The notes below the pieces were generated by a model. The model was given only the letters and a program-made list of their open reading frames with translations, had not been told where the DNA came from and searched no databases. This document shows, piece after piece, positions 1,817 through 28,232 of a stretch of DNA of 64,000 nt. How positions within the stretch are numbered: the stretch's first letter is position 1; the number at the start of each line of letters is the position of its first letter. The stretch is from an uncultured Planctomycetales bacterium (GTDB lineage Bacteria > Omnitrophota > Gorgyraeia > Zapsychrales > CAZBRU01): the NCBI GenBank assembly GCA_964515035.1, contig CAZEUO010000006.1, positions 10,103 through 74,102 on the forward strand, written 5' to 3'. A program made the position numbers and the translations under genes.

Positions 1817-2014
1817 ATGCAATATAAAATGAAAAAACTAGCCGAAACTTACACAGTCGAAGAAGTCGCGGAAGCTCTCAAGCTTCATCCCTATACCGTG
1901 CGCCGATTATGCAGAGAGGGCAAAATCCCAGGATTTAAATTCGGTGGGCAATGGAGATTTCAGAAAGAATCTATTAATAAATTTGTCAATTTATCAAAGA
2001 TGAAAAAACAATGA
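1817..2014 (+). CDS. small helix-turn-helix DNA-binding protein, excisionase/MerR-like (HTH_17) family; possible controller of the downstream Res-Mod operon
   Basis: 65 aa with the pattern TVEEVAEAL...YTVRRLCREGKIPGFKFGGQWRF, typical of excisionase-family HTH. Its stop overlaps the res start (ATGA). Palindromes lie in the upstream promoter region. Confidence 0.55.
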   Translation: MQYKMKKLAETYTVEEVAEALKLHPYTVRRLCREGKIPGFKFGGQWRFQKESINKFVNLSKMKKQ

Positions 2015-4977: not shown

Positions 4978-4980
4978 ATT

Positions 4981-10621: not shown

Positions 10622-11119
10622 GTGGAAATTGAAATGTTTTCGAGAAAAAGAATAGAAGATTATCTTAAGAAAATTGAAAAGAGGTTTTTTATCGCTCCAC
10701 GCCAAAAGTTTAGTTTCTCCGAAAATTGGTTTCAGGAAATACCCTTGGAAGCTGGTATTTACGGTATTTTTAATCAAAATAAACTCATCTATATAGGGGA
10801 AACCGGTTCTCTTCGCGGAAGGATGCGTGATTTGGGAAGAACGGTTAATCATCAATTCCGAAGAAGTGTTGGGAAAAATATGTTCTCTCGTGTAAAAGGA
10901 TTCGAGGAAGCGAGCAGTAGAAAGAAATTTCCTCTTAACATTGAAAAAAAGCTAAATAAATGGATGGAACAAAAACTTGAAATCGCTGTTTTGCCAATTT
11001 TGTTTGGAAGAAAGGAAATTGAAGAATATATCTGTAAAGAATATAAACCAAAATGCAATACACGAGTTAAAAGGGAATGTAGAAAGATAAATGAAAATCA
11101 TCGAAATTTATCACTGTAA
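10622..11119 (+). CDS. GIY-YIG nuclease domain protein (standalone, 165 aa)
   Basis: GIYGIFNQNKLIYIGETGSLRGRMRDL matches the GIY...YIG...R core. Only a 25 nt gap follows the ATPase gene, with no terminator. Start may be GTG at 10622 or ATG at 10634. Confidence 0.6.
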   Translation: MEIEMFSRKRIEDYLKKIEKRFFIAPRQKFSFSENWFQEIPLEAGIYGIFNQNKLIYIGETGSLRGRMRDLGRTVNHQFRRSVGKNMFSRVKGFEEASSRKKFPLNIEKKLNKWMEQKLEIAVLPILFGRKEIEEYICKEYKPKCNTRVKRECRKINENHRNLSL

Positions 11120-11516
11120 TGTTAAAACTAAGCGGAAGCTGCCAATGTTTCTTTCAAGAGTTCGCGCCGGGTTTCCGTCCCCCGCAGATGATTACCTCGA
11201 CAAGAAACTGGACTTAAACGAACATCTGATTAAGCATCCCGCCGCTACTTTTTTTGTCAAAGTCAAAGGCGATTCGATGATAAAGGCGGGAATTAATTCG
11301 GGAGATATTCTGGTAGTTGATCGTTCGCTTGAACCAAAAGATAAGAAAATTGTTGTGGCGATACTAAATGGAGAGTTTACGGTCAAGCGAGTGCGAAAGA
11401 TGAAGGACAAATTATATCTGGTTTCAGAAAATGACGATTATCTGCCTATTGAAATCAAAGATGACGCGGAGTTTGAGATTTGGGGAGTAGTTGCCCATGT
11501 TATCCACTCAGTCTGA
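11091..11516 (+). CDS. umuD: UmuD (S24 LexA-like self-cleaving peptidase, TLS polymerase V accessory subunit)
   Basis: RAGFPSPADDYL...KVKGDSMIKAGINSGDILVVD aligns to the E. coli UmuD cleavage site (CG/FPSP) and the catalytic Ser (GDSM). Lys is in the C-terminal part. The full-length N-terminal arm is present if the start is 11091. Confidence 0.75.
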   Translation: MKIIEIYHCNVKTKRKLPMFLSRVRAGFPSPADDYLDKKLDLNEHLIKHPAATFFVKVKGDSMIKAGINSGDILVVDRSLEPKDKKIVVAILNGEFTVKRVRKMKDKLYLVSENDDYLPIEIKDDAEFEIWGVVAHVIHSV

Positions 11517-12810
11517 CAAAAAAGTTTTTGCCTTAGTTGACTGCAATAGTTTTTACGTTTCCTGCGAAAAAGTTTTTCATCCTTCCGTAAACAACAAGCC
11601 AGTTGTTGTGCTTTCCAATAATGACGGTTGCGCTATCTCACGCTCGAATGAAGCCAAGCGGATCGGTATTGGCATGGGTGCTCCTATATTCAAATGTCAG
11701 GATATTGTTAAACAACATGATGTGAAGGTTTTCTCAGCTAATTTTGTCCTCTATGGCGATATGTCTAATCGGGTTATGGCTGTGCTTTCGAATTTTACAC
11801 CGAATCTTGAAATCTATTCGATTGATGAAGCTTTCCTTTTATTAAACGGCTTTGAACACTTGAATCTTGAGGACTATGCACGCAAGATTAAGGGAGAGGT
11901 TAAAAAACAAACCGGAATCCCTGTCTCAATTGGTGTTGCGCCGACCAAAACTTTGGCGAAAGTTGCTAATCATTATGCCAAAGACCATCCGGAAGCAAAT
12001 GGGGTATTTACCTTAATGGATGATGATAAGATTGAGCGTATCTTGTCACAAACACCGGTTAGAGAGATTTGGGGCATCGGTAAAGAAAAGGCCATATTCT
12101 TGGAACGACACGGCATAAAAACAGCGTTTGAATTACGAAATACCAGTGATGAATGGATCAAGAAACATCTGACTATCGTTACCCTACGCACGGTTTGGGA
12201 ATTAAGAGGAACCCCGTGTTTGTCTCTGGAAAAGGTGCAACCCAATAAGAAAGCCATTGCAACAACCAGAACTTTTGGTTATGAAGTTAATTGTTTGGCG
12301 GAAATGGAAGAGGCGGTCGCGGCGTATGTCAGCCGTTCGGCAGAGAAGTTAAGAAAACAAAAATCACTGGCCAGTTACATTCAAGTGTTTATTGAGACTA
12401 ATCCTTTCAAAGACACGCCTTACTATCGGAATTCAGCCGGAACGGATGTTAATCCACCAACGGCCTACACACCAAGATTGATTGAAGTTGCTAAGGAGCT
12501 TTTAAAACGTATTTACCGAGATGGCTTACGCTATAAAAGCTGTGGAGTCTTTTTAATGAATCTTTGCCCTCAAACGAACGAACAGGATTATTTGTTTGAA
12601 GAAAAATATCAAGGAAGCTCACGAGAAAGGCTCATGCAGATTATGGATCGTTATAATCGCGGTGCTAATAGCGGAAAACTTTTTATGGCCGCTGAAGGGT
12701 TGGGTAAGCCATGGTTTATGAAACAAGCGCATAAATCCAAGCGATTCACAACACGGTGGGACGAACTGTTAACAATAAACCTTGAAAGGAATAAAAATGC
12801 CACCAAGTGA
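11491..12810 (+). CDS. umuC: UmuC / Y-family translesion DNA polymerase V catalytic subunit
   Basis: N-terminus FALVDCNSFYVSCEKVFHP...PVVVLSNNDGCAI is near-canonical UmuC. Overlaps umuD as in umuDC operons. Confidence 0.85.
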   Translation: MPMLSTQSDKKVFALVDCNSFYVSCEKVFHPSVNNKPVVVLSNNDGCAISRSNEAKRIGIGMGAPIFKCQDIVKQHDVKVFSANFVLYGDMSNRVMAVLSNFTPNLEIYSIDEAFLLLNGFEHLNLEDYARKIKGEVKKQTGIPVSIGVAPTKTLAKVANHYAKDHPEANGVFTLMDDDKIERILSQTPVREIWGIGKEKAIFLERHGIKTAFELRNTSDEWIKKHLTIVTLRTVWELRGTPCLSLEKVQPNKKAIATTRTFGYEVNCLAEMEEAVAAYVSRSAEKLRKQKSLASYIQVFIETNPFKDTPYYRNSAGTDVNPPTAYTPRLIEVAKELLKRIYRDGLRYKSCGVFLMNLCPQTNEQDYLFEEKYQGSSRERLMQIMDRYNRGANSGKLFMAAEGLGKPWFMKQAHKSKRFTTRWDELLTINLERNKNATK

Positions 12811-14971: not shown

Positions 14972-17779
14972 ATGCGTAATTTCAGCGAACGATGCTTAAG
15001 GAATCTGCAAGATAGGATGATAATCCTCGGCTTTGAAGGTTGGGATATCTTTATCGTGATTGGCACAGCTTTAATTCTGCAATCCTTCCATATCCATAAT
15101 CTTGTTCTTTGGTTGACAATCGGCGCAACCGGAGGTTTCCTCTATTTTATCAAACGGGGTAAACCGCCGAATGCCACGGAACATTTTGTTGACTGGTTTT
15201 TAAAGGAAAAACGTTTTACGGCAATTCCGCAAATCATCGGCGAATCATTAAAAGGAAGGCCGTTAGATATCAAACTCAATTCATTGCAAACCTTATTGCC
15301 CTATGGGCACTTGGAAGATAACTATTTAATATTCTGCGACGATTCCCTTTCGGTCAGTTATGAAATCAGCTGTCCGCCACTGGATAATCTTTCCAATGAC
15401 GAACTAATTGCCTATTCCCAGCGTATCGAAACTTTTTTAAACAGTTTAACCGATAAGGCTACTTACCAGATTTTCTTTACTCTCGATAGCAATTATCAAA
15501 AGGAAATTGAGGAGCATAAAGCCATTAAGTCGACGCACCCCTTGATTAAGATCATGCACAGCCAAAGAATCGAGAAATTCGAAGAACTGCAAAAACAGAA
15601 AGTCTTAAGGCGAAGGCGTTGTTTTCTATTTGTTAATTACGCCGGTTCTAAGGCTAATCAGAAAAAAATAAGCCTATTAAATAAGTTTAAACAAAGCCGG
15701 AAACTGATCAATGAAGATGTCGATCTCTTGAAACGTGACCTGACCTTTATCCTTCAGCCCATCGAGGACAGCATAAAGGCGGCTGGATTTAGTTTTAAGC
15801 GGTTGTCGCAAGATGAAATCATGGCCTTGATTTACAAATATTTGAATCCGGATCGAGAGAAACAAGGTTTGCTATGCGCCAGGCTAAAGGACAGCCAAAT
15901 GTTTGGCCGGCAGGTTTGCTGTTCAGACTTATTGATAGATGAAAACAAAGGGGAATACCTGCATTTTGGCGGCTTTTACCATAAATACATTACCTTAAAA
16001 GTCCTTCCGGAAACAACCGAGCCCGGGATGTTGGCCTATCTGTCCCAACTATCTTTCTCGGAATTCGATGTGATTGTCAATTTTGAGGCACCGGCCAAAG
16101 AATGGGGGCGAAAGAAAATCGAATCCATGCGAAAGCGCGAATACGGCAACATGGTCGGCCTCTTTAATATCGTCAATAAAGACGCCCAAACAAAAGTCGC
16201 CCAGTATGAAACGCTTCTTGAGGAAACCCAACAAAATAATCAAAAACTTTTCCGTATGCAGCTGACTCTGCATGTTTACGGTGAGGAAATGGAGGATGTT
16301 AAGAAAAAGACTGTTGAAGTTATCCGTATATTTTCCAGCCTTAACGGCGCGGAAATGCATGATGAACGCTGGGGCGCGGTTAAACCGATATTTCTAGGGA
16401 CCTTGCCCGGATGGACCAAAGAATCATCGAGGTGGTTATTGTTGAAATCCCTTCATTTGGCGGATTTTTTGCCGTTTTTCTCCGAATTTAAAGGGAGCGG
16501 ATCGGCACAATGCCTATTCTTTAATACAACTCAAGGCTTGGCCTCTTATGATCCGTTTTCGGAGGAATTGACCGCTTTTAATACCGTAGTTGTAGGCGCA
16601 TCGGGGAGCGGAAAAAGCTTCACCATCAATCAAATTATCAATCAATACAGCAAAAACGACCCCGTGGAAATATTTATCGATATTGGTGGTTCATACAAGC
16701 GTCAAGTCATCTTAAAAAACGGCGAGTATATCAACTTAGGCCTAAAAGAGAAATTCACCATCAATCTTTTTGATTTATCAAAGAATAAGCGGTTTAGAGA
16801 TTTTAACGAAGAGGAACAAAACGAAATCCTTATCATTAAGACCAAAACCATTGCCCAAATGATGGGTGGGCTGGCTCGATTTAAAGAATCCGACCAAATA
16901 GTGGAAGATTTTATCTTTCGAAGCGTTGCCTTTCTGTATGAAAGAGTTGACTATCCCATCTTAAGCGATCTTAAGGAAGTTTTGAAATCCGTATCCCAAA
17001 ACAACAAACAATTACAGCCGTTTCTTGAGCCGGTTATCGGGTTGTTGGGAATCTGGTTTAAAGGCGGGCAGTATGGCAATTACACCGATGGCCCTTCGAC
17101 AATATCCTTAGATAACAGCGTTATTTGTTTTGATTTAAAAGGCCTTAGTCAATTCGAAAGGCTTCAGGCGGTCATGCTGACTATCGTAACAAACTTTATT
17201 TGGGGAAAAATCATGAGTGAGCCCGGGCGCCGCAAATTCGTTATTTTCGATGAGTGCTGGAAACTACTTAGTACCCCGGAAGCGGCCACTTTTATCGCCG
17301 AATGCTACCGAACCTTTCGAAAATACGGCGCAGGGGCCATTTCGGTCACTCAATCTTTAAGCGACTTTTTGGGATGCGGCTTGGAAGATGCCATACTGGG
17401 CAATTCCAATACGCGATTTATTCTGCGCCAAAATTCTGCTCCCACGGTTGAACAGATTATTAAATACTTCAACTTTAATGAACAGGAGAGAAGGCTTGTT
17501 GAATCTCTACAGATTAAAAAAGGTGAGTATTCGGAAGTCTTTTTCTCGCAATCCAAGGAGTTAAAAAACATCAGCGCCAAGATGGTGATCTGGCCTACGC
17601 CGATTGAATATTGGGTTGCGACAACCGATTCGAGAGATTTGGGCCATTATGAAAATACCAGACAGCGGTTTCCGAAACTGAACTTGTACGAATCATTACA
17701 AAAATGCGCAAAAGAATTTCCGCATGGTGTTGGAAATTCAACATTCATTCAAGAAGGGGGGCCAAATGCGTTCATTTAA
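14972..17779 (+). CDS. virB4: VirB3::VirB4 fusion, T4SS ATPase (TrbE/CagE family)
   Basis: N-terminal two-TM VirB3-like segment. Walker A VVVGASGSGKSF. Walker B FVIFDECWKLL. 935 aa. Confidence 0.85.
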   Translation: MRNFSERCLRNLQDRMIILGFEGWDIFIVIGTALILQSFHIHNLVLWLTIGATGGFLYFIKRGKPPNATEHFVDWFLKEKRFTAIPQIIGESLKGRPLDIKLNSLQTLLPYGHLEDNYLIFCDDSLSVSYEISCPPLDNLSNDELIAYSQRIETFLNSLTDKATYQIFFTLDSNYQKEIEEHKAIKSTHPLIKIMHSQRIEKFEELQKQKVLRRRRCFLFVNYAGSKANQKKISLLNKFKQSRKLINEDVDLLKRDLTFILQPIEDSIKAAGFSFKRLSQDEIMALIYKYLNPDREKQGLLCARLKDSQMFGRQVCCSDLLIDENKGEYLHFGGFYHKYITLKVLPETTEPGMLAYLSQLSFSEFDVIVNFEAPAKEWGRKKIESMRKREYGNMVGLFNIVNKDAQTKVAQYETLLEETQQNNQKLFRMQLTLHVYGEEMEDVKKKTVEVIRIFSSLNGAEMHDERWGAVKPIFLGTLPGWTKESSRWLLLKSLHLADFLPFFSEFKGSGSAQCLFFNTTQGLASYDPFSEELTAFNTVVVGASGSGKSFTINQIINQYSKNDPVEIFIDIGGSYKRQVILKNGEYINLGLKEKFTINLFDLSKNKRFRDFNEEEQNEILIIKTKTIAQMMGGLARFKESDQIVEDFIFRSVAFLYERVDYPILSDLKEVLKSVSQNNKQLQPFLEPVIGLLGIWFKGGQYGNYTDGPSTISLDNSVICFDLKGLSQFERLQAVMLTIVTNFIWGKIMSEPGRRKFVIFDECWKLLSTPEAATFIAECYRTFRKYGAGAISVTQSLSDFLGCGLEDAILGNSNTRFILRQNSAPTVEQIIKYFNFNEQERRLVESLQIKKGEYSEVFFSQSKELKNISAKMVIWPTPIEYWVATTDSRDLGHYENTRQRFPKLNLYESLQKCAKEFPHGVGNSTFIQEGGPNAFI

Positions 17780-18173
17780 ATATTTGTTATTAGCCTTAAT
17801 ACTTCCGGTACTTATTGGTTGTGCTAACAAACTGGCTTACGTTTCAACCGGAAGCCTCATTGGAGCCGGGGGCGGGTATGCCATTGACCGTGACAGCAAG
17901 GACGCTGCTATTGGCGGGTTAGTTGGGGGAACGACCGGAGCCATACTAGCAGACATCCATAAAAAAAGTGAAAATAAAAAGTACCAAGATGGTTACGATC
18001 AAGGGTATACCCAAGCCCAGCTTGAAATTGCTAAAAGTAACTGGGATGAAAATACCGGCAAACAAAAGAAGGATGTTACTTCAAAATCTTATGAGCGGAT
18101 TAAAATCCCTAAAAAAGAAGTCAATGATGTGCTCTATGATTCGCATTATGAAACGCTGGAGGTGTACAAATGA
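17766..18173 (+). CDS. lipoprotein with glycine-zipper motif (possible VirB7-like / T4SS-associated)
   Basis: Lipobox LIGC after signal peptide. GSLIGAGGGYAID...GGLVGGTTGAILA glycine zipper. The upstream ORF start (17724) overlaps virB4, so the 17766 ATG is preferred. Confidence 0.45.
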   Translation: MRSFKYLLLALILPVLIGCANKLAYVSTGSLIGAGGGYAIDRDSKDAAIGGLVGGTTGAILADIHKKSENKKYQDGYDQGYTQAQLEIAKSNWDENTGKQKKDVTSKSYERIKIPKKEVNDVLYDSHYETLEVYK

Positions 18174-18895
18174 AAAAACTTATGGTTTTTGCGATTATTC
18201 TCATGTTGAGCCCGCGGCCTGCGTGGGCTGATTCGACCTGGGCGGTCTTACAGCAAACCAGCATCCAGACAGCTGAGCATCTAAAAAGGGTTCAGGAAGC
18301 GATTAAGATGGTTCAGCTGCTTCAAACCCAGGTTCACGATGTCCAGGATCTTCTTAAATTGGCAGTCAGGGCCAGTGAAGGCTTGGAGGGCGTTGAGTTT
18401 ATAAGCGATTTCAGGAACCTGGCGATTGAAACCAACGACCTGATTGGAGAAATTCGAGAGTATATCGAATATGACAAACCCATTGGAGAAGAATGGCTGA
18501 ATCTCTTTGGAAAAATCGGGAACTGGATCGAAGACTCAAATGAAATCTTTAAAAATATTAAAATGTCCGATTCGGTCAATGCCAGAAGTTTTAATATTGC
18601 CGATAGCTACCATGACAAATATCAGGAAAATTCAGAATACGCTGAGCAATTAGTTGCGAATTCGAAAACAGTCAATGAAAAAGGCGCGTTAAAACAGATA
18701 GCGGAAGAGATGGGCCACCTCATGCAGATGCAAAATCAAGAAATTTATTTACTCTCCGAGATCCTCAGATCGCAAAGTGTCGAATACTCCAACGAAAATC
18801 TGAAGCGCAAGGAAGATGCCATCAAATTTGAGCAGGAAAATAAAGGGATAAAGCGTTTTATAAGCATGTCAATCGACGACCAATTCGAGTTATAG
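18170..18895 (+). CDS. secreted alpha-helical protein, VirB5/TrbJ-like candidate
   Basis: Signal peptide MKKLMVFAIILMLSPRPAWA. Coiled-coil-rich. Position matches VirB5 between B4 and B6. Confidence 0.35.
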   Translation: MKKLMVFAIILMLSPRPAWADSTWAVLQQTSIQTAEHLKRVQEAIKMVQLLQTQVHDVQDLLKLAVRASEGLEGVEFISDFRNLAIETNDLIGEIREYIEYDKPIGEEWLNLFGKIGNWIEDSNEIFKNIKMSDSVNARSFNIADSYHDKYQENSEYAEQLVANSKTVNEKGALKQIAEEMGHLMQMQNQEIYLLSEILRSQSVEYSNENLKRKEDAIKFEQENKGIKRFISMSIDDQFEL

Positions 18896-18899
18896 AGCT

Positions 18900-19913
18900 A
18901 TGGACTTTGTTATTAGCATTGTCAAAAGTGATTTATGGGGAATAATCCATACTGGACGCTATTTGTTGAGTGGCCTTTTCCTTTTTGCGGTATTTGTTCA
19001 TTTCCTGGGCATACTCGCTCATCAAACAAGCTGGTCGTCCTTACTGATGCGATTGGTGATCGGCTTTATATTGCTTCAAAACTATGTTTGGATCATGGAC
19101 ACGACCAAAGATATTGTCGTAGGCTTAGATAAAACGATTACCCCGCAACAGGACTTTTCCAAACAGTATGCCGAGATGTCTGAAAATTTAAGGGTGGAAT
19201 ATGAGCAAAATGTCCAACAGAGTATCACTGAACGAATTCTAAACTTTGGTAAAAACACGATCCACAGTTTGGTGGTAAACTTTTCGTTTATTTTTTATGC
19301 CATAGTTTCTCGTATTATGGAGGCTATTCGTTACTCGATTGCGGGTATTTTGTATAAATTGGGGCCGATTTTAATTCCTTTAATCCTATTCAATTCGACA
19401 AAGCGTGTTTTGGGCGGTTGGTTCACCAGCTATATTTGCGTGCTGTCTTGGCCGATTTTATGGCATATCACGTTGTCGATTGCCGTTGCCATAAGCGAAC
19501 GTTTTGGCATAACCGGAGATGGGATCGAATATTTCGTTGCCATTAATTTTGCGGTGGGTTTTGTCCTGATATTTTCACCGATGATTATTACGAGTTTGGC
19601 TGCCGGTATCGGCGCGGGGGCAGCGGCTTCGCTTGCTGGGGCGTTTGCGACAAAAACATTCTTAGATAGATTTCAGCAAGCCGGGCGTATAGGAGCGGCG
19701 GGAGTGACAGGCGCGGTAAGCACTGGCATAAGAACTGTTCAAAGCATTTCTCAGGCCATTCCGGTTAACGCATTGTTAAGCGAAAGGTTTAAAAATATCA
19801 TGTCCTTTGCCGGAAAGCCTAAAGCGGATACTCCGGGACACGATATTAAATCATCCGGCAAAAACCCTTTTGATTCAATCAATAAAGCAATGAAAGGAAA
19901 GAAAGATGAGTGA
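18900..19913 (+). CDS. VirB6/TrbL-like polytopic inner-membrane T4SS protein
   Basis: Multiple TM helices and a Gly/Ala-rich C-terminal segment. Correct synteny position. Confidence 0.5.
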   Translation: MDFVISIVKSDLWGIIHTGRYLLSGLFLFAVFVHFLGILAHQTSWSSLLMRLVIGFILLQNYVWIMDTTKDIVVGLDKTITPQQDFSKQYAEMSENLRVEYEQNVQQSITERILNFGKNTIHSLVVNFSFIFYAIVSRIMEAIRYSIAGILYKLGPILIPLILFNSTKRVLGGWFTSYICVLSWPILWHITLSIAVAISERFGITGDGIEYFVAINFAVGFVLIFSPMIITSLAAGIGAGAAASLAGAFATKTFLDRFQQAGRIGAAGVTGAVSTGIRTVQSISQAIPVNALLSERFKNIMSFAGKPKADTPGHDIKSSGKNPFDSINKAMKGKKDE

Positions 19914-20502
19914 GCTTGCCTTTAACCGAATTATTCTGGAAAAAAATAACTATGTTTTATCCGTCCTGGCCGTTATTTCCTTATCGATTAATTTGTTTTT
20001 AACCACGATGCTGGCTTTTTCGATCAATAAAAAGCCACTTATGGTTTATGAGGATTCGGGACAGGTGATTTCTCTTAACAATCGAGAATTTAAATTAGAC
20101 GAAAAGATTTTGGAAGGGTTCGTCCATTTGATTACCAAAGAATACTTAAGTTTTAGCCCGTCCTCATTGCCGGTGCAAATTGAGGCGATAAAGCATTATC
20201 TAACGGACAGCCCAAGAAACGCGATTCTTGATTCCTATAAAAAGAATGAGAAGAAAATTCAGGAAGAGAATGTTTTTCAACAATTTACCGTTCAAGAAAT
20301 TAAAATCACCAAAAAAAACAGTCCGTATTTAGTCGAAGTTGATGGCATAAAAACGGTTTACGCCAATGGCAACAGCAAAAATATTGCCGCGACTTATGCA
20401 TTGGAAATCGAACGGATCAAGCAGGCACAAGATAATCCTTATGGATTAATTGTTTCAAAGATTATTGAGAAACCACAACAACTAACGGAGAGCCGGAAAT
20501 GA
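19906..20502 (+). CDS. VirB8-like bitopic T4SS protein
   Basis: N-terminal TM (VLSVLAVISLSINLFLTTMLAF) followed by about 150 aa periplasmic domain. Synteny. Confidence 0.45.
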   Translation: MSELAFNRIILEKNNYVLSVLAVISLSINLFLTTMLAFSINKKPLMVYEDSGQVISLNNREFKLDEKILEGFVHLITKEYLSFSPSSLPVQIEAIKHYLTDSPRNAILDSYKKNEKKIQEENVFQQFTVQEIKITKKNSPYLVEVDGIKTVYANGNSKNIAATYALEIERIKQAQDNPYGLIVSKIIEKPQQLTESRK

Positions 20503-21311
20503 AATATATAATCATATTGTTAATTTTGCTTACCGCAGAGCCGGTTTTTGCGCTTGATGGAACAAACAGGTATTTGAGCCCTAATAAAGTCATTTATGAA
20601 GACCCTCAAGAAGATGATGTCCTCATCATCAATACAACCGTTGGTTACACAACCGTGTTGGAATTTCCCGAAAAACCCGCAATGGTATCAACCGGCGACA
20701 GCTCTCTTTTGCAAATCGAAGTGCCAAAGAATTCAAAGAGTGTCCTGTTAAAAGCCTTAAGAGACGAAGGGGAGACTAATCTCTTTGTTTTCACGCCAAG
20801 CCAGCGGTTTAATTACAAGGTCTTTATCGGCAATCAGCAGGATGTTGATTATGTCATTGATGTTCAGAAAGAATCTCTAAACAAGAAGAATCGACCTGCA
20901 CAAATTCCGATAACCCAGCTTGTAAAAATGGCACAAAACTACCGGGTTTTACGCGATTCCAAACAAATCAATGACCGGATATTCATTCAAAAGGACATAT
21001 TTACTCAATATGAGAATCCGTTCGTAAAGCTGAAAGTTATCGAAGCCTTTGCCAATAAAGCCCCTCACTATCTGGTTTTGCATTTTGTTATTTCAAATAA
21101 GCAATTAATACCTATAAACTTAAACGAGAAAATAACCAGTGTGTATGTTAACGGCCAAAAGTTTCAGCCAAATTATGTTTTGTTTGATTCCGAGAGGCTG
21201 AATGCAAAACAGGAAACGGATGCTTGGGTCATACTGGAAGGAACTCATATTTCCCTAAACAATCACTTTTCTATCGGGGTAGGTGTCTATGATAAAGAAC
21301 ATATCTTTTAA
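20499..21311 (+). CDS. VirB9/TrbG/CagX-like T4SS outer-membrane core protein
   Basis: Signal peptide and beta-rich sequence. Overlapping start/stop with neighbours (translational coupling). Confidence 0.5.
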   Translation: MKYIIILLILLTAEPVFALDGTNRYLSPNKVIYEDPQEDDVLIINTTVGYTTVLEFPEKPAMVSTGDSSLLQIEVPKNSKSVLLKALRDEGETNLFVFTPSQRFNYKVFIGNQQDVDYVIDVQKESLNKKNRPAQIPITQLVKMAQNYRVLRDSKQINDRIFIQKDIFTQYENPFVKLKVIEAFANKAPHYLVLHFVISNKQLIPINLNEKITSVYVNGQKFQPNYVLFDSERLNAKQETDAWVILEGTHISLNNHFSIGVGVYDKEHIF

Positions 21312-22206
21312 AAATTTATTTTTTAGGCAGGATCATACCGGAAGACGGCAGCCGACAATCCTGACTTGGGTATTGGTCTGCATGACAGTTTTCGGCTCAT
21401 TCTTTTTATCGAAGGGAAAAGGCAAAGTCCGGAAGAAGGAAGCAAAGCAGGACATTATCAAAGAAAAAGATATTGTTGCGGCCTCAAATACACCAACGAA
21501 AAAGGATGAAAATACGATCGATTTGTCCAAGATTTTAGAAATTGCCAGAGAAGAAGGAAAGAATAAGGCGTCGAGAATCAAAGGAAAAATAGATTCAAAA
21601 ATGATTGTTTTTGACGGGACCAACGATTACCGTTCTGATCAAATCGCCCCTCTGGGGAGCATGGTCAAATGTATTCTTGCGCATAATATCGTAACCAACA
21701 ATTTTAGTTCACCGGTCATTGTCCAGGTTTGGGAAGATTTTTATTTTAACGGAAAATTACTTTTCCCGTTTGGAACCAGAATATATGGCACCGCCAGGGC
21801 GGGCAAAGAAAGAGACCGGGTGCTTGTTACTTTTCATACGGCGGTATTTCAGGACGGTAGAGAAGTCAAGCTGAATGCCATTGGATTAAGCCAAGACGGT
21901 TCCGGCGGCTTAACCGGTCAACTTGTTAGAAAGGAAAACAAGAAAAGAATACTTCTAATGGCGATGAATTTCATAAGCGGTATAGCGCTGGGGTTGCAGG
22001 AAACAGCTACCAATGCCGTTACCGGATTATCACAAATTACGACCAATTCACGCAACGCCACATTAGAAGGAGTATCCAATACTTTTGAAAACGAAGCGCG
22101 CCGGCTTGAAAAAGAAATCGATGCCGCTGAAGGGTACGCTATTGTTTTGGCAGGGAACCAATTGATAGTTTATTTTGAGAAATCAACGGATGTAAAACCG
22201 CTTTAA
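21283..22206 (+). CDS. VirB10/TrbI-like T4SS core protein
   Basis: N-terminal TM (ILTWVLVCMTVFGSFFL), low-complexity linker and C-terminal beta domain. Synteny after VirB9. Confidence 0.5.
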   Translation: MSMIKNISFKNLFFRQDHTGRRQPTILTWVLVCMTVFGSFFLSKGKGKVRKKEAKQDIIKEKDIVAASNTPTKKDENTIDLSKILEIAREEGKNKASRIKGKIDSKMIVFDGTNDYRSDQIAPLGSMVKCILAHNIVTNNFSSPVIVQVWEDFYFNGKLLFPFGTRIYGTARAGKERDRVLVTFHTAVFQDGREVKLNAIGLSQDGSGGLTGQLVRKENKKRILLMAMNFISGIALGLQETATNAVTGLSQITTNSRNATLEGVSNTFENEARRLEKEIDAAEGYAIVLAGNQLIVYFEKSTDVKPL

Positions 22207-22220
22207 GGGAGGATAAATCA

Positions 22221-22502
22221 ATGCGAACGATAGCGCTACTAACCGCGTGTATTTTATTTTCTGGATGTGCGACTTATGGTTCATTGCCGTTTATAAAAGC
22301 AACGGATCAACAGCCGTCTGTAGAAACTGAAACCGTATGGGTAAACGCAAAAACAAAGAAGATTTGGATTAATCCGCATGTCGATGACGAAGGCAATATG
22401 GTCGAAGGGCATTATAAATTTATTGTTTTGGAGAAAGGCCATTGGGCCTTACAGGAAATTGCTCCGGAAAACACAATTACGAATAAATCGGAAGGCAAAT
22501 GA
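22221..22502 (+). CDS. small lipoprotein (possible VirB7-like)
   Basis: Lipobox LFSGC. 93 aa. Located between VirB10 and VirD4. Confidence 0.4.
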   Translation: MRTIALLTACILFSGCATYGSLPFIKATDQQPSVETETVWVNAKTKKIWINPHVDDEGNMVEGHYKFIVLEKGHWALQEIAPENTITNKSEGK

Positions 22503-24211
22503 ACGACAAGATTGTCCTTATCATCTTGGTCTTAATTTTGGGGTATTACCATTACCGGGAATTTATTTCTGAGGAGTTGAACAATCCCTTATTTTACGGG
22601 GCGCTGATTATTTTCTTTTTCCTTATATTATTTGTCGGCCACTATTTCGAGAAATTTCAAAACAAATTAAGTATGTGGCGTCAGGGAATAAGGTTTAACC
22701 CAGACTCAAATCCAATACTTTACCCATTCCGTAAATACAATATTAAAGATTTTTTGGACAGATTCTATGCCATAGAAAGCAATAAGGAGCATACCTTTAT
22801 CGGATTAAATGCTGAAAAGTCGAATAAAGAAGACGTTTTTATTCCGGACATACAGCGCAGCCAGCATTTGCAGGTTTTGGGAATGACCGGGACCGGAAAG
22901 ACTTCAGGCATATTTCTGCCTTTGATTTATCAGGATGCTCTTAAGAAACGCCCGATTATTATTTTAGACGCGAAAGGAGAGATGCACACCGTTAACCAAC
23001 TCAACTCTATTTTTCATTCAATTGGGCGCAGCGACGATTTTCTATTATTTTCGCTTTCCCATAAAGATATTTCTTGTAGTTATAACCCTTTATACGTTGG
23101 GGAATGCGATCCCCAAGTTGTCATTGATGCATTTTTTAATAATTTTAAAGATGAAAATACATTTTATCGTGAAACATCAAAAACGATTTTCACGAATACA
23201 TTTTATATTCTTCATTCGTTAGAAAAGCCATTTACCCCGATGGATGTTTACACCTATTTGACAAATCTAAAATGCCGCTTGGAAATCAATAAACAAATTA
23301 AGCAAAACGAAAAAGGGTTCATTTATTTGAAGCTTCTTAATACCCTTATCGAAAGGCTTACTGACCAATATAAGGGTTGGGAGCATGTTATAACCGGCTT
23401 TAACAATTATCTGTTAAATCATCGGGCTGATCTTTTAAACGTAGATGACAGCGATATTATTCTTACAGATGTCATCCGGGAGAGAAAAATCGTCTATTTT
23501 CAACTCCCGACGAATGCTTATCCCATCCAAGCTGTTAGCATCGCAAAAATGGTACAGGCCAATTTGCGCTACATATCATCACTGATCCAGGTAGGCTTGA
23601 TTCCTAAAGATATTTTAGTCAGCGTCATCATCGATGAATACGGCTCATTTGCCGAAGAAACATTTGTTGAGGTGTTAAATAAGGCCAGAACCAGCGGGAT
23701 GATGGTTACCCTCTCGCACCAAAGTTTGAGTGACTTAAGAATGATTTCGGAAACCTTCATGAAACGCATAGATGAGAATACCCTGAACAAATTATATCTC
23801 AAACAGACAGATCCGGAACTCTGTGAACTGATTGCCAAAAGCATGGGGACCTATATCAAAGAAGAAAAGACCTACCGGATGGTAGGCGGAAATTTTGGTA
23901 ACCAAGTCCATAACGGCGAATCATCAAATCGCCTGGTTAATGAATTCCATTTTCCACCGGACAAGATCAAGAATTTACACAAATTCGGACAAGGTTATTT
24001 TGTATACCGTGGCAATAATACTCATAAATGCGTTAATTTCGGAAAATTCGATAACATTCAAGAAATTCCCTATATCAAGAAAACAAAAAGTAACAAGCGT
24101 GAGGGGTTAAGGCTCTTTGAAAAATATTACTTGGCCAATTCGCTGGAAGAAAAGACACGCAAACCTAAAATGGCGATGGCTTCTAAAGGCCTCATCGAAT
24201 GTGATGATTAA
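22499..24211 (+). CDS. virD4: VirD4/TraG-type conjugative coupling ATPase (T4CP)
   Basis: Two N-terminal TM helices. Walker A LGMTGTGKTSG. Walker B VSVIIDEYGSF. 570 aa. Confidence 0.8.
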   Translation: MNDKIVLIILVLILGYYHYREFISEELNNPLFYGALIIFFFLILFVGHYFEKFQNKLSMWRQGIRFNPDSNPILYPFRKYNIKDFLDRFYAIESNKEHTFIGLNAEKSNKEDVFIPDIQRSQHLQVLGMTGTGKTSGIFLPLIYQDALKKRPIIILDAKGEMHTVNQLNSIFHSIGRSDDFLLFSLSHKDISCSYNPLYVGECDPQVVIDAFFNNFKDENTFYRETSKTIFTNTFYILHSLEKPFTPMDVYTYLTNLKCRLEINKQIKQNEKGFIYLKLLNTLIERLTDQYKGWEHVITGFNNYLLNHRADLLNVDDSDIILTDVIRERKIVYFQLPTNAYPIQAVSIAKMVQANLRYISSLIQVGLIPKDILVSVIIDEYGSFAEETFVEVLNKARTSGMMVTLSHQSLSDLRMISETFMKRIDENTLNKLYLKQTDPELCELIAKSMGTYIKEEKTYRMVGGNFGNQVHNGESSNRLVNEFHFPPDKIKNLHKFGQGYFVYRGNNTHKCVNFGKFDNIQEIPYIKKTKSNKREGLRLFEKYYLANSLEEKTRKPKMAMASKGLIECDD

Positions 24212-24225
24212 GGAAAGGGACTAAA

Positions 24226-24780
24226 ATGGCAAATAAAAAAGAAAAAAACAGATCGGCAGAAATCATCCCGCAAGAACGCATTGAAAATAGAATTTTACTC
24301 ATCAGAAGCAAGAAAGTCATGCTCGATAGTGACCTTGCGGAATTATATAAAGTAGCGACTGGCCAATTGAAGAGGGCTGTTAATCGCAACATAAATAGGT
24401 TTCCCGAAGACTTTATGTTTGAACTCACCAAAGAAGAAGCCCAAGCTTTGAGATGCCAATTTGGCATCTCAAAGAAAGGACGAGGCGGCCAACGATATTT
24501 ACAATATGTTTTCACCCAAGAAGGTGTCGCGATGCTTTCCAGTGTTCTTAACAGCGAGAGGGCTATTGGTGTGAATATTCAGATTATGCGTGCTTTTGTA
24601 AGGTTGCGCGAACTTATGATTTCTCATAAAGATTTAGCCCGCAAACTTGATGATTTAGAATTGAAATTTAAAGAACATGATAAGAGTATTTTGTTAATTT
24701 TTAGGGCAATAAAAGAATTGCTTCAAAAGCCGAAAGAACCGGAGAAGCCGAAGCTTGGCATTGGCTTTCATGTCAGGTAA
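24226..24780 (+). CDS. ORF6N-domain protein (KilA-N related, phage antirepressor/Rha-like DNA-binding)
   Basis: RILLIRSKKVMLDSDLAELYKVATGQLKRAVNRNINRFPEDFMFELTKEE is the typical ORF6N N-terminal domain. Confidence 0.6.
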   Translation: MANKKEKNRSAEIIPQERIENRILLIRSKKVMLDSDLAELYKVATGQLKRAVNRNINRFPEDFMFELTKEEAQALRCQFGISKKGRGGQRYLQYVFTQEGVAMLSSVLNSERAIGVNIQIMRAFVRLRELMISHKDLARKLDDLELKFKEHDKSILLIFRAIKELLQKPKEPEKPKLGIGFHVR

Positions 24781-24988
24781 ACTTATCGAATATAAGGGGA
24801 AAATAATGGAACGTCGATTTATAGGAGTTGTCGAATTGGCTGATTATCTTGGGTTGACCAAAGGAACTGTTTACGTATGGGTTTGCCGCAGAAAGATTCC
24901 CTATGTCAAGGTCGGTAGATTGGTCAAGTTCGATTTGCACAAGATTGAAAAATGGTTAGAAGAAACCTCTACAAAAGTATATAATTAG
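24755..24988 (+). CDS. xis: excisionase / AlpA-like HTH_17 DNA-binding protein
   Basis: VELADYLGLTKGTVYVWVCRRKIPYVKVGRLVKFDLHKIEKWLEE. Directly upstream of the integrase. Confidence 0.6.
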   Translation: MALAFMSGKLIEYKGKIMERRFIGVVELADYLGLTKGTVYVWVCRRKIPYVKVGRLVKFDLHKIEKWLEETSTKVYN

Positions 24989-25010: not shown

Positions 25011-26210
25011 GTGGCTATGGCTGTTTTCAATCGTGTCTATTGTCCTAATTGTAAGAAAGAGCACAACATCTATGGGGATGACATCAAAGAGTTAAATTGC
25101 GGCCGTTGTGGGTATCCTGTAAAAATAAACCCTAAAGAAGGTAATTTTTTTATTGAGTATTATGCCAAAGGAAAGCGGAAACGGGAGAAAATTGGGCCGA
25201 ACAGAACACTGGCCGAAATAGTCCTCAAAAAACGAAAGGTCGAAATCGCCGAAAAGAAATTTCTCGATATCAAAGAGGAAAAAAGAATTAAATTTGAAGA
25301 TTTTGCCGATGAATATTTGGAACTCCACGCCAAGGTCAATAACAGGTCCTGGAAAAAGGCCGATGCCGTAAACATCAGGCTTCTTAAAAAAGTTTTTTCG
25401 GGAAAGTGCCTTAACGAAATTACGCCGCTGATGATTGATCGATTTAAGGCAGAAAGGGCAAAAAGTCTAAAAGGCGAAAAGAAAACAAAAACAATTTCCC
25501 CTGCTACGGTGAATCGAAATTTAGCTTGCCTGAAAAGCATGTTTAATAAAGCGATTGCCTGGGGTCAGTTTGTCGGAGAAAACCCTGTCCGGCAGGTAAA
25601 ACTTTTTAAGGAGAATAATAAAAGGCTGCGGTTTTTGGAGAAGGAGGAGATTGTCCGGCTATTGGCCAATTGCAATAAACACCTGAAAGCGATTGTTATC
25701 CTTGCCCTGCATACAGGCATGAGGCGGGGAGAAATATTAAATCTTAAGTGGCGCGATATCGATATCAAGCGCGGGGTCATTTATTTGTACAATACCAAGA
25801 ATAGCGAGAAAAGGGAAATCCCTATTAATGAACAGGTGAAAACTGCGCTTATCAGAACACTCAAGCATCCAAAAAGCGAATATATTTTTACTAAAAAAGA
25901 CGGGTCACCCATAGGTGACATTAAGAAATCTTTCTATGCAGCTGTGAAGAAATCTGGTATAATCACGCTTCGTTTTCATGATTTGAGACATACCTTTGCC
26001 TCCCATTTGGTTATGAGTGGAGTTGATTTGAACACAGTAAGAGAATTGATGGGCCACAAGTCGTTGCAAATGACACTTAGATATTCACATTTGTCGCCTG
26101 ACCATAAGAAGCGGGCAGTGGATACCTTGGGTAAGAGAATGGACACATTTTGGACACCAGAGCTAAAAACACTTATTGCAATAAAAGACCAAGTCCCTAT
26201 AACCACTTAA
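25011..26210 (+). CDS. int: tyrosine site-specific integrase with N-terminal CxxC..CxxC zinc-ribbon
   Basis: C-terminal HDLRHTFASHLVMSGVDLNTVRELMGHKSLQMTLRYSHL gives the R..H..R..Y catalytic box. N-terminus CPNCKK..CGRCGYP. Ends 22 nt before tRNA-Met. Confidence 0.9.
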   Translation: MAMAVFNRVYCPNCKKEHNIYGDDIKELNCGRCGYPVKINPKEGNFFIEYYAKGKRKREKIGPNRTLAEIVLKKRKVEIAEKKFLDIKEEKRIKFEDFADEYLELHAKVNNRSWKKADAVNIRLLKKVFSGKCLNEITPLMIDRFKAERAKSLKGEKKTKTISPATVNRNLACLKSMFNKAIAWGQFVGENPVRQVKLFKENNKRLRFLEKEEIVRLLANCNKHLKAIVILALHTGMRRGEILNLKWRDIDIKRGVIYLYNTKNSEKREIPINEQVKTALIRTLKHPKSEYIFTKKDGSPIGDIKKSFYAAVKKSGIITLRFHDLRHTFASHLVMSGVDLNTVRELMGHKSLQMTLRYSHLSPDHKKRAVDTLGKRMDTFWTPELKTLIAIKDQVPITT

Positions 26211-26232
26211 GATTATTAGTGTTATAATTTTC

Positions 26233-26306
26233 GGGCCCATAGCTCAGGCGGTTAGAGCAACTGACTCATAATCAGTGGGTCGGAGGTTCGAGCCCTCCTG
26301 GGCCCA
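26233..26306 (+). tRNA. tRNA-Met (anticodon CAT; elongator or Ile2-type), CCA not encoded; integration target
   Basis: Cloverleaf folded by hand. Acceptor GGGCCCA/TGGGCCC. Anticodon loop CTCATAA. T-loop TTCGAGC. Confidence 0.85.
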
Positions 26307-26403
26307 GTGAACTGGTGATGAACGAGATGTTCAAAAGGTTCTCCCGCCTTTTCCACCACTAGCGTTTAGAAGAAGGGCGGGACCCCGCCGTTGTCCGGCG
26401 GGG

Positions 26404-26424
26404 GAGCCCTGGTGGGCCCAGTGA
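26404..26424 (+). repeat. 19/21-nt direct repeat of the tRNA-Met 3' end (att-core-like remnant)
   Basis: gagccctggtgggcccagtga versus gagccctcctgggcccagtga at 26290..26310. Confidence 0.45.
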
Positions 26425-26460
26425 TCGACCAATATAGATTTGTCAGTTAAGTGGGTTTTA

Positions 26461-26537
26461 GGGCGCATAGCTCAGCTGGATAGAGTGCTGCCCTCACATG
26501 GCAGAGGTCGAAGGTTCGACTCCTTCTGCGCCCACCA
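26461..26537 (+). tRNA. tRNA-Val (anticodon CAC), CCA encoded
   Basis: Acceptor GGGCGCA/TGCGCCC. Anticodon stem CTGCC/GGCAG with loop CTCACAT. T-loop TTCGACT. 3' ACCA. Confidence 0.85.
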
Positions 26538-26563
26538 AAATCGTACGATACAAAAAGGAAATT

Positions 26564-27289
26564 ATGCCCCAAGTTTCCATCAAGGATCAACTCAAGAAGC
26601 TTGTTGAGCTGCAGGCAATCGATGCCGAACGCTACCGTCATAAAGTAGAATTGGAAGAAAAACCTGCCGCACTTGAGGAGCTTAGAAAAGCGTTTGAAGA
26701 GAAAAAAGTTAATTTAAAAAGCCTTGAGGATCGCTCAAAAACGATCCAAGTTGACCGGAAGTCTAAAGAGCTTGAATTGCAGGCCAAGGAAGGGGAGATT
26801 GCGAAATCGAATGCCCAACTTTCTTTGCTGAAGACCAATAAAGAGTATCAGGCAAAGATGGCAGAAATTGAAAGTTTTAAAGCCGACAAATCCATTATCG
26901 AAGAGAAAATTCTTCTTTTGTACGATAGCGGCGACATTATCAATTCTGAGATCGCAAAAGAAAAAAGTATTTTGGCTGAAGAGGAGAAAAATTATTTAAA
27001 TCAGAAGAAAATCGTCGAAGACGCCGTCAAGGAAATTGAGGAAAAGCTGAAAGTTTTAGAAATGAAACGAAGTCAGGTTTCTCCTGAGATTGATAAGGCA
27101 AATTTAAATCGCTACGAACGGGTTTTAGAAAACAAAAAGGGCCTGGCCATCGTCCCTGTGAAAGGCAATTCGTGCGGGGGATGTTTTATGAATGTCCCCG
27201 AACAGAGCATTAACGAAATTAAAATGCATGACAAGCTGACATTTTGCGAAATGTGCGCCAGGATTCTTTATCTCGAGGATGATCTTTGA
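26564..27289 (+). CDS. COG1579-type zinc-ribbon/coiled-coil protein
   Basis: Long coiled coil then C-terminal CGGCFMNV...CEMCARILY zinc ribbon. Start moved to ATG 26564 with RBS AAAGGAA because the longer ORF overlaps tRNA-Val. Confidence 0.6.
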   Translation: MPQVSIKDQLKKLVELQAIDAERYRHKVELEEKPAALEELRKAFEEKKVNLKSLEDRSKTIQVDRKSKELELQAKEGEIAKSNAQLSLLKTNKEYQAKMAEIESFKADKSIIEEKILLLYDSGDIINSEIAKEKSILAEEEKNYLNQKKIVEDAVKEIEEKLKVLEMKRSQVSPEIDKANLNRYERVLENKKGLAIVPVKGNSCGGCFMNVPEQSINEIKMHDKLTFCEMCARILYLEDDL

Positions 27290-27744
27290 AATCGATCGAG
27301 CTCTTTGTCGATGGGGCTTGCAGCGGAAACCCCGGGGAGGCGGGAATCGGGGTCGTCGTTATCGAAAAAGGCAAAACGATTAAAAACATTTCGCTTTCCA
27401 TCGGTCAAGCGACGAATAATATTGCCGAATATACGGCGCTCATCTTTGGGCTTCAGGAAGCGCTGATTCTCAAAGCTGATAAGGTTCGAGCGAATACCGA
27501 TAGCGAGCTTTTGTACAATCAAATCAACGGTAGTTACAAGATTAAGAACCCGACTTTAAAAGTTCTCGTTGCACAAGTTGAGCATTTATTGAAAGGGTTT
27601 AAGCAGGTAGAAATGAAGCGTGTCCCGCGCGAACAAAATCGAGATGCGGACACGTTGGCAACAAAAGCTATTAAAAAGGAACAAGCCAAGGTAGTCGCCC
27701 CGCTATTCGTAGTCGGGGAGGAAAGTCCGAGCTCCGAAGGATAA
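27286..27744 (+). CDS. rnhA: ribonuclease HI-like protein
   Basis: ELFVDGACSGNPGEAGIGVVV...NNIAEYTALIFGL...NTDSELL...REQNRDADTLA gives the D-E-D-D RNase H fold motifs. Its 3' end overlaps rnpB. Confidence 0.7.
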   Translation: MKSIELFVDGACSGNPGEAGIGVVVIEKGKTIKNISLSIGQATNNIAEYTALIFGLQEALILKADKVRANTDSELLYNQINGSYKIKNPTLKVLVAQVEHLLKGFKQVEMKRVPREQNRDADTLATKAIKKEQAKVVAPLFVVGEESPSSEG

Positions 27745-28082
27745 TGCATCCCGGTAATGCGGGATACTTTTGAGGTCTGTCGCAAGACAGCTTTCGAAAG
27801 GAAGATTAGAGCTACAGTGACGATACCTGGTGCTTATCCCGCTCACGCGGGACAAGTACTGGGGGTGAAACGAGCAATCTCTGCAGGGAGCAAGGCCAAA
27901 TAGGAAAGGATCCCGTACTAATTTTGCTTCACAAAATTAGTGCTGGGACGAAGTTGATCCGCTTCGTCAGGACTTTCGGGTAGGCTGCAAGAATCCGGCG
28001 AGCAATCACCGGAGTTAGTCAAATGACTATCCATCTCGCCTTGAAAAAAATCGAGAGGAACAGAACTCGGCTTACTGGCTTG
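27682..28082 (+). ncRNA. rnpB: RNase P RNA (rnpB), bacterial type A
   Basis: GAGGAAAGTCCGAGCTCC (P4 5' strand), GGGTGAAA, GAGCAAGGCCAAATAGG, GGGTAGGCTGC, and ACAGAACTCGGCTTA (P4 3' strand) match conserved blocks of E. coli M1 RNA in the correct order. P1 pairing caagcca/tggcttg. Confidence 0.8.
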
Positions 28083-28232
28083 TTCAATGAGCACGCGACT
28101 TATGTCGTCCTACGGACGACATAAGTCGCTGTGCGAATGAATCCCAAACATTTTTTGTGAGAAAAATGTTTGGGACCTAAAGTGCAGAAAACTTTTAAAC
28201 GCAATCCAAACGAATAAGAAAGGGTCAATACT

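Follow-up and report, generated by a model that had tools for sequence, protein, structure and literature searches.

Why does the 3' end of a tRNA-Met gene occur twice at this locus, with less than 100 nt between the copies and a conjugative element directly on the other side of the gene? The locus lies in the window, by which we mean the whole stretch of 64,000 nucleotides, from an Omnitrophota bacterium, that was analysed. An earlier inspection of the letters and their open reading frames (the sequence-only reading) had taken the second copy for a degenerate footprint of integration. The explanation that we favour, with moderate confidence, is that mobile DNA carrying a replacement tRNA-Met sequence and a hairpin arm inserted into the resident tRNA-Met. 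The features on which the argument rests are given in Table 1.

Table 1. Features of the window around the repeated tRNA-Met end, with positions counted from the first letter of the window.
Feature	Position	Strand	Evidence or remark
Type III restriction-modification	2011-7452
SMC/AAA_21 ATPase	7459-10596
UmuD/UmuC	11091-12810
Type IV secretion genes	14972-24211		VirB4/TraC, TrbL, TraE, CagX, TrbI, coupling protein
HTH_17 gene	24755-24988
Tyrosine integrase, last gene of the conjugative element	25011-26210	+	Pfam Phage_integrase 2.2e-40 and Int_N
tRNA-Met(CAT), complete, carries copy 1	26233-26306	+	ARAGORN; Rfam tRNA 70.5 bits
Copy 1 of the 21-mer GAGCCCTCCTGGGCCCAGTGA	26290-26310	+	tRNA 3' end plus GTGA
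Spacer, putatively imported, variable 5' third	26307-26335	+	45% identity to L097, the neutral level
Spacer, putatively imported, conserved hairpin-rich part	26336-26403	+	79% identity to L097; nhmmer E = 3.7e-9
Block identical in L097	26336-26355	+	20/20, AGGTTCTCCCGCCTTTTCCA
Hairpin H1	26342-26352 pairs with 26372-26382	+	consensus structure, window and L097
Hairpin H2, loop TTGTC	26383-26390 pairs with 26396-26403	+	consensus structure, window and L097
Copy 2, attR-type repeat	26404-26424	+	2 mismatches against copy 1
Native spacer, from the presumed old tRNA-Met end to tRNA-Val	26425-26460	+	comparison with the L100 flank
tRNA-Val(CAC), native downstream neighbour	26461-26537	+	ARAGORN; Rfam
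RNase P RNA, bacterial class A	27678-28090		143.6 bits; several long insertions relative to the model

The repeated tRNA-Met end and its empty sites

The two copies of the 21-mer agree at 19 of 21 positions, and the two mismatches are adjacent (CC to GG). This part of the sequence-only reading was confirmed. No further copy of the 21-mer is present elsewhere in the 64 kb window on either strand, 100 dinucleotide-preserving shuffles of the window produced no such repeat (0 expected by chance), and a sensitive self-BLAST of the 64 kb found no other pieces of tRNA-Met. Copy 2 is made up of the T-loop GAGC, the T-stem 3' strand CCTGG, the acceptor strand TGGGCCC, the discriminator A and the native GTGA. 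The 21-mers are separated by 93 nt (26311-26403), or by 97 nt when the distance is counted from the end of the tRNA.

The flanking GTGA had been counted as part of the match. It is indeed present after both copies in the window, but the one after copy 1 is replaced by GAAT in the homologous locus L097, so the firm repeat is the 17 nt of tRNA sequence. We also found that TGGGCCCA is its own reverse complement and that copies 1 and 2 could therefore pair together, to which we give no weight. With C4-G69 and C5-G68 in its acceptor stem, the tRNA with the CAT anticodon looks as much like the tRNA-Ile2 (lysidine) of E. coli as its elongator tRNA-Met.

To the left of the gene, an integrative conjugative element fills about positions 1 to 26210, with its left end beyond the window. 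Besides the genes in Table 1 it contains GIY-YIG, SRAP, relaxase-like and ORF6N genes. The stop codon of its integrase lies 22 nt before tRNA-Met, and both are read in the same direction. The GC content is about 0.39 left of tRNA-Met, in the element, and about 0.45 to the right. There, tRNA-Val is followed by a zinc-ribbon gene, RNase H, RNase P RNA, YebC and RuvCA, and the order tRNA-Met, tRNA-Val, zinc-ribbon gene, RNase H is conserved with relatives. The RNase P RNA directly follows the RNase H gene. Just left of the window start, contig L108 carries a motif of about 50 nt (AGTCC.GCGT.GAAGGGGGAA.CCTGGACTTTAAAAAAGTAAAACCTTCG) twice, at its positions 80-130 and 673-722. The motif precedes two consecutive element genes (DUF1643 and a transglutaminase-like gene) and may be a shared leader or regulatory RNA.

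The alignment with empty sites that the sequence-only reading had proposed could be made with related Omnitrophota genomes. Relatives were found through the zinc-ribbon gene, and loci with the same synteny were compared. Two of them, L101 and L102 (73% protein identity), have a clean empty site, composed of rpoD, the native promoter region, a tRNA-Met with the T-stem CCAGG/CCTGG, 33 nt and tRNA-Val. In L100 (80%) the tRNA-Met, ...GGTCCCAGGTTCGAGTCCTGGTGGGCCCA, ends in GAGTCCTGGTGGGCCCA and is followed directly by GTGAT and the spacer, while the tRNA-Met of L103 (75%) ends in GAGCCCTGGTGGGCCCAGTAA. Copy 2 matches the single tRNA-Met end plus GTGAT of L100 at 21 of 22 positions, and the tRNA-Met end of L103 at 20 of 21.

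The similarity to L100 continues into the flank, where 29 of about 40 positions are identical over 26421-26460, a segment that includes the GTGA of copy 2 (shuffle p = 0.0015). The window flank after copy 2 is not alignable with that of L097, and comparison of nine relatives showed no homology between their spacers. Since the single end of the empty-site relatives matches copy 2, copy 2 appears to be the displaced original 3' end of tRNA-Met. The restored empty site of the window would read tRNA-Met and then directly GTGATCGACC.

The T-arm of the present tRNA-Met is GGAGG TTCGAGC CCTCC, as in L097, and differs from the CCAGG/CCTGG stem of the empty-site relatives L100, L101 and L103. With copy 2 and 26425-26460 orthologous to a native end and its flank, the newcomers are the T-arm GGAGG/CCTCC and the 97 nt behind it. 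The att-type duplication that the sequence-only reading had suspected is thus supported by these relatives, with the roles of the copies exchanged, as copy 2 had been regarded as a diverged copy of the present tRNA end and is instead the older one, the present T-arm being the import. A pseudo-att site, offered there as an alternative, is rejected on account of the flank behind copy 2, an ortholog of the native one. The same reading had also allowed for another element in continuing competition for the site, of which there is no sign.

The same insert is found in L097, L098 and L099, three assemblies of a groundwater genome (76% identity). Their gene order is dnaG, rpoD, a small GIY-YIG gene, tRNA-Met, a 157-nt spacer and tRNA-Val. 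The arrangement recurs in three independent assemblies and is therefore no assembly artefact. The L097 spacer is homologous to that of the window, has both hairpins and ends in GCGCCCTGGTGGGCCCAGTGAT, and its tRNA-Met has the same GGAGG/CCTCC T-arm. In L097, a native promoter region that can be aligned to its counterpart in L101 precedes a mere stub of tRNA-Met, its first 10 nt (GGGCCCATAG, 9271-9280). Behind the stub come roughly 350 nt of foreign DNA containing the GIY-YIG gene, then a complete tRNA, the insert and the old 3' end. The ends of the old gene flank everything, which points to one foreign block (GIY-YIG remnant, new tRNA and insert) inside the old gene.

These assemblies bear on an objection raised with the original observation, namely that relatives lacking any island might share the duplication, as they would a native feature. 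L097-L099 do share the insert and second copy and contain no integrase or conjugation genes, but L097 has pieces of the old tRNA around foreign DNA and closer relatives are without the insert, so this is no native operon feature.

Some further observations concern the foreign DNA of L097. The GIY-YIG gene (within 9281-9666) encodes a nuclease of 98 aa, lies within the disrupted old tRNA-Met and has a reading frame that enters the new tRNA. Short TCCCGAC(G/A) repeats stand in front of the gene, and the nuclease may be homing-type or leftover cargo. No integrase remnants were found in L001, L097 or L101. A 13-mer, AAGATTATT(A/C)GTG, occurs after the integrase stop in the window and at the 3' end of the GIY-YIG gene in L097. 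Homology upstream of the tRNA was dropped, because the shuffle p was 0.056 and an unrelated locus scored equally.

In terms of gain or loss, identity of zinc-ribbon and RNase H groups the window with L096 and L100 (80-87%; 80-83% for L100) and L097 with L103 (90-91%), with L101 outside both groups. The insert is thus present in two non-sister lineages, the window and L097, and absent from a closer relative of each. A deletion between the repeats would yield a GGAGG/CCTCC tRNA or a mismatched stem. It cannot produce the CCAGG/CCTGG stem of all three empty sites, which argues that the empty form is ancestral and the insert was gained. As the closer relatives of both carriers are empty, the insert and the GGAGG/CCTCC T-arm must have entered or been transferred at least twice.

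Similarity in copy 2 breaks off sharply, in the window and in L097 at one and the same position of the T-loop. A circular form that uses copy 2 would join the left end of the island to ...CGGCGGGG|GAGC. Both strands of the T-stem are imported and the similarity of copy 2 ends in the T-loop, hence the import starts upstream of the T-stem. That old DNA resumes only at GAGC fits a foreign block with a whole new tRNA splitting the old gene, the arrangement found in L097. A crossover in the T-loop could also have occurred, but both lineages would then have had to acquire the same pair of compensatory changes, at the cost of more events.

Our reading, which we hold to be fairly likely, is that copy 2 once ended the resident tRNA gene and was displaced when a site-specific insertion, whose right junction it marks, supplied the replacement. 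Mobile DNA would have entered the chromosomal tRNA-Met by site-specific recombination, with the right junction in the T-loop before GAGC. It would have brought replacement tRNA-Met sequence, probably all of the gene at 26233-26306 and no less than its entire T-arm and acceptor end, with the 97-nt arm and its two conserved hairpins behind it. The old 3' end would have been displaced about 114 nt downstream, next to the native flank and tRNA-Val, where it now stands as an attR-type repeat. The junction was presumably made by a tyrosine integrase, and an integrase-bearing element resembling the conjugative element on the left may have entered along with the imported block.

Several findings count against this explanation. 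The DNA between the copies holds no recombinase gene, and as described below, the arm is missing from the closest integrase relatives, a motif of the L006 and L035 inserts does not track integrase relatedness, the hairpins are selected for pairing, and inserts of the window type amount to two independent sequences. The old 5' part of tRNA-Met, the expected mark of the left end of the island, is not seen for the window genome, either in the window or in the 925 nt added further left through L108, where no tRNA occurs. In L097, an extra deletion is required for the loss of old tRNA positions 11-56.

Integrase relatives and the border of the island

The integrase belongs to a very large clade, with more than 6000 matches. 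In 18 of 19 distinct loci with at least 46% identity, the integrase gene is next to a complete tRNA read in the same direction (Ser, Lys, Thr, Ala, Pro, Leu, Arg or Met) and terminates anywhere from 29 nt short of the tRNA 5' end to 51 nt into the tRNA. More distant relatives mostly face the tRNA 3' end in the classical manner (27 loci vs 10). According to PMC6563490, which cites Zhao and Williams 2002, elements integrate far less often into the 5'-distal part of a tRNA gene than into its 3' part.

The closest relatives of the integrase have 72-76% identity over the C-terminal region, as in L011. In L011 and L012, the same type of conjugative element is found at tRNA-Lys; there the host genes begin 51 nt beyond the tRNA, and no repeat is present. 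Of the 21 co-directional loci that have at least 300 nt of downstream sequence, only three (the window, L006 and L035) carry the 3' part of the tRNA again on that side, and the arm is therefore no constant part of this element family. In L006 the integrase is followed by tRNA-Met, a 143-nt insert and a 31/31 repeat of the tRNA 3' part; in L035 by tRNA-Thr, a 128-nt insert and a 31/33 repeat. Foreign DNA abuts the 5' end of the tRNA at all four insert-bearing loci.

Several other features of these loci are worth recording. The integrase frame enters the tRNA sequence in L006, L020, L022, L028 and L030, its stop codon in L006 being the TAA of the anticodon loop. The 3' tails of the integrase genes in L008, L013, L016, L017, L019, L021 and L023 contain, when inspected by eye, TTGAAA or TTGATA, about 17 nt and then TAnnnT, all in the last 30-40 nt before the tRNA and with the hexamer TAnnnT ending 4-7 nt before it. 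This resembles a promoter that the element itself would provide for the tRNA. In the window, TATAAT occurs at 26223-26228, with only a weak -35. The metagenome contigs of L010, L014, L015, L018, L027, L100, L103 and L003 end inside or just after the tRNA beside the integrase, as would be expected of elements that have the tRNA sequence at either end.

The tRNA-Met/tRNA-Val locus itself is a hotspot. In L001, a 40-nt 5' fragment of tRNA-Met (8596-8635) lies 770 nt upstream of the complete gene, and 5' and 3' fragments of tRNA-Val are found at 9641-9677 and 9912-9934. L103 has, within positions 1-460, a new tRNA-Val amid pieces of an older one, whose breaks lie in the D-loop, behind the anticodon arm and in the T-loop.

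The repeat may mark where the island in the window really ends on the right. If the insert is a terminal module of the integrase-bearing element, with an imported tRNA, the island would end at about 26403/26404 rather than at the tRNA beside the integrase. This is quite conceivable, on balance slightly doubtful, and could also have come about by accretion with an older remnant. It would be the more parsimonious arrangement for the window and L097 and would fit the foreign DNA on the 5' side at the four insert-bearing loci. The lack of the arm in the closest integrase relatives weakens it.

The lack of a downstream repeat in those relatives, whose junction must be in the tRNA, favours instead an older and independent mini-remnant, similar to a CIME, of a 3'-targeting element that integrated in the T-loop and decayed to about 100 nt, with both att repeats preserved, before the conjugative element arrived on the 5' side with a junction of its own at or within the tRNA. 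We consider this unlikely. The 40-nt 5' fragment in L001 is the trace expected of a 5'-side element, L097 holds the insert without an integrase, and both the CIME concept and accretion are described in PMC5704250. However, gain of both elements in the window and L097 lineages would amount to four events, and the T-stem 5' strand must have changed from CCAGG to GGAGG twice in parallel, since the similarity of copy 2 stops in the T-loop. Foreign DNA against the tRNA 5' end at four of four insert-bearing loci also tells against it, and a circle of about 120 bp would be an unlikely substrate for recombination.

In L006 and L035 the folding of the insert is very stable (z of -6.5 and -3.7), and near the start of each insert lies an inverted copy of the 5' end of the repeat. 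The two L035 copies have different T-stems, each fully paired (GGCGG/CCGCC vs GTCGG/CCGAC). The paired T-stem in the displaced copy indicates that it came from a working gene, with the crossover upstream of the T-stem. A motif of about 30 nt, AGGGGTG..GGGGAAAA.AGTTT.CCCC, is common to the two inserts and found at no other compared locus, and it does not track the relatedness of the integrases. Rfam gave only sub-threshold matches on these inserts. A match of the motif in viral contigs was discarded as chance coding sequence, and the integrase search of viral contigs returned nothing.

As a speculative extension that we consider unlikely, the 97-nt insert and those of L006 and L035 would form a class of miniature structured modules that carry a replacement tRNA 3' part or whole gene, split the resident tRNA and have hairpins under selection. 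Such a module could be an att-only element mobilised in trans or in cis, or a small RNA from the tRNA operon. If real, these modules would explain the 5' and 3' gene fragments that litter the tRNA-Met and tRNA-Val loci of these Omnitrophota.

Insertion of mobile DNA with a replacement tRNA-Met has several consequences. The right border of the island likely shifts to the position given above. The tRNA-Met in use would be at least partly imported, and island-boundary callers that halt at the first tRNA can fall about 190 nt short. The locus would also illustrate, with empty alleles for comparison, how mobile DNA can overwrite the tRNA genes of an uncultured phylum and supply the replacement.

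Structure and constraint of the insert

The 97 nt between the copies contain no gene and no recombinase. The sequence-only reading had drawn one GC-rich hairpin here. The segment is GC-rich (0.58 vs 0.45 in the host part) and does fold, better than its shuffles (z of -2.3 to -2.8), but into the two hairpins H1 and H2 rather than the single one proposed.

Comparison between the window and L097 separates two parts of the insert. The 5' third is 45% identical, close to the 46% at third codon positions of the zinc-ribbon gene, and the spacer after copy 2 has about 53% identity. The 3' two-thirds, with the hairpins, reach 79%. H2 has two compensatory changes from CG to UA pairs, H1 has two wobble-preserving GU/AU changes, and all six stem substitutions in the two hairpins preserve pairing. 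When 11 substitutions were placed randomly, all 19 pairs stayed intact in 0.15-0.4% of trials (p 0.0015-0.004), a test in which the structure was predicted from the same two sequences, the only independent ones known for an insert of this type. Judged by this comparison, the hairpin-rich part is under constraint, its hairpins kept by compensatory changes. Selection on pairing suggests a role as RNA or as a single strand, as a double-stranded recombination arm needs no pairing. The arm may have been kept through action in cis, as a recombination arm or as a structured spacer of a tRNA-Met/tRNA-Val co-transcript.

Searches with the insert gave no relatives beyond L097-L099. No Rfam 15 family matches 26307-26424, and within the window only the tRNAs and the RNase P RNA pass. 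With nhmmer, no further copies of any insert were found in the window or in the 108 compared loci. Matches of the conserved blocks in viral contigs were only to unrelated terminator-like or coding sequence and were rejected, and a phage collection gave no match to these blocks. A terminator, meaning a GC hairpin with a T run, was also considered and rejected: there is no such site on the + strand in 25800-26900, and the insert is absent in L100, L101 and L103.

The covarying hairpins, together with 79% identity where neutral sites have 46%, would also suit a native structured spacer of a tRNA-Met/tRNA-Val operon, a processing or stabilising RNA that was inherited vertically, lost in some lineages and unrelated to mobile DNA. 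The neutral-level divergence of the 5' third is compatible with an old age, and GC-rich hairpins are found in the spacers of other relatives as well. Yet the insert is missing from the closer relatives of both carriers, and deletion between repeats cannot yield the CCAGG/CCTGG stem of the relatives. The spacers of the nine relatives share no homology, no Rfam family or + strand terminator is present, and the L097 locus is visibly disrupted. Taken together, this makes a native origin improbable.

Weaker still is a decayed second tRNA-Met left by tandem duplication, of which only the 3' end would be recognisable. There is a weak in-register similarity upstream of copy 2 (GTTGTCC vs GTGGGTC), but the tRNA covariance model of Rfam gives no match over copy 2, nor anywhere over 26347-26420 even at E up to 10. 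In addition, the similarity boundary is sharp and shared with L097, and the native flank is the one after copy 2, not after copy 1. We regard this origin as very improbable. A tRNA pseudogene was likewise rejected, as no tRNA-model match beyond the two real tRNAs was obtained at E up to 10. Finally, a chance match or an assembly artefact is practically dismissed by a chance expectation of 0 and by the same structure in three independent assemblies of a related genome.

Comparison with known systems

Island borders at which the 3' end of a t(m)RNA is repeated, with the junction in the T-loop, are described in PMC3146451 and PMC1762012. Such border repeats, like tandem arrays and CIMEs, are a well-known phenomenon (PMC3146451, PMC5704250). 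The closest parallel is with tyrosine-integrase elements that target the 3' end, such as mycobacteriophage Ms6 and the Dehalococcoides ssrA islands (PMC3146451), where, as described there, a same-strand repeat of the 3' end lies downstream of the gene. Also shared are the distal copy followed by native flank, the break of similarity in the T-loop and the empty alleles in relatives. The window differs in having 97 nt without a gene between the repeats, and no integrase-bearing element there. Its integrase lies upstream of the tRNA 5' end, in the same direction, and both T-stem strands are replaced, more than would be expected of a simple crossover in the T-loop.

CIMEs, in the description of PMC5704250, are like the window insert in being bounded by attL/attR repeats and in lacking recombination or transfer functions. 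The tandem with a conjugative element at one target gene is likewise known from ICE-CIME accretion, which PMC3146451 also covers. The window insert is unlike them in its size of about 100 nt and in its sequence, which is conserved with base-pair covariation, and its mobilisation is only hypothetical. Familiar examples of CIMEs are kilobases long. As to an origin by decay, no gene remnant is present in the insert, and the window and L097 share its boundaries, so that any decay occurred once, before the insert spread.

Elements with the reversed, 5'-distal target, as presented in PMC6563490, are similar in that the integrase clade of the window faces the tRNA 5' end, and the 40-nt 5' fragment of L001 is a repeat of the corresponding kind. 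The difference is that the repeat in the window is of the 3' end. If the whole tRNA was imported, the element would carry a full replacement gene, with no crossover in the 5' part.

SLP1 and pSAM2 of Streptomyces are integrating plasmids whose att identity spans the whole tRNA gene, so that the tRNA sequence is the crossover region. The window is like them in having much or all of a tRNA sequence beside an integrase, and differs in the roughly 100 nt between the complete tRNA and the junction.

Overall, att scars made of tRNA 3' ends are known, and what would be unusual here, as far as sequence comparison goes, is the tiny size, the replacement of the T-arm or of the gene, the integrase on the opposite side of the tRNA and the covariation within the scar. 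Conserved covarying hairpins in so small a scar would go beyond ordinary att-site biology, in a phenomenon that is otherwise familiar.
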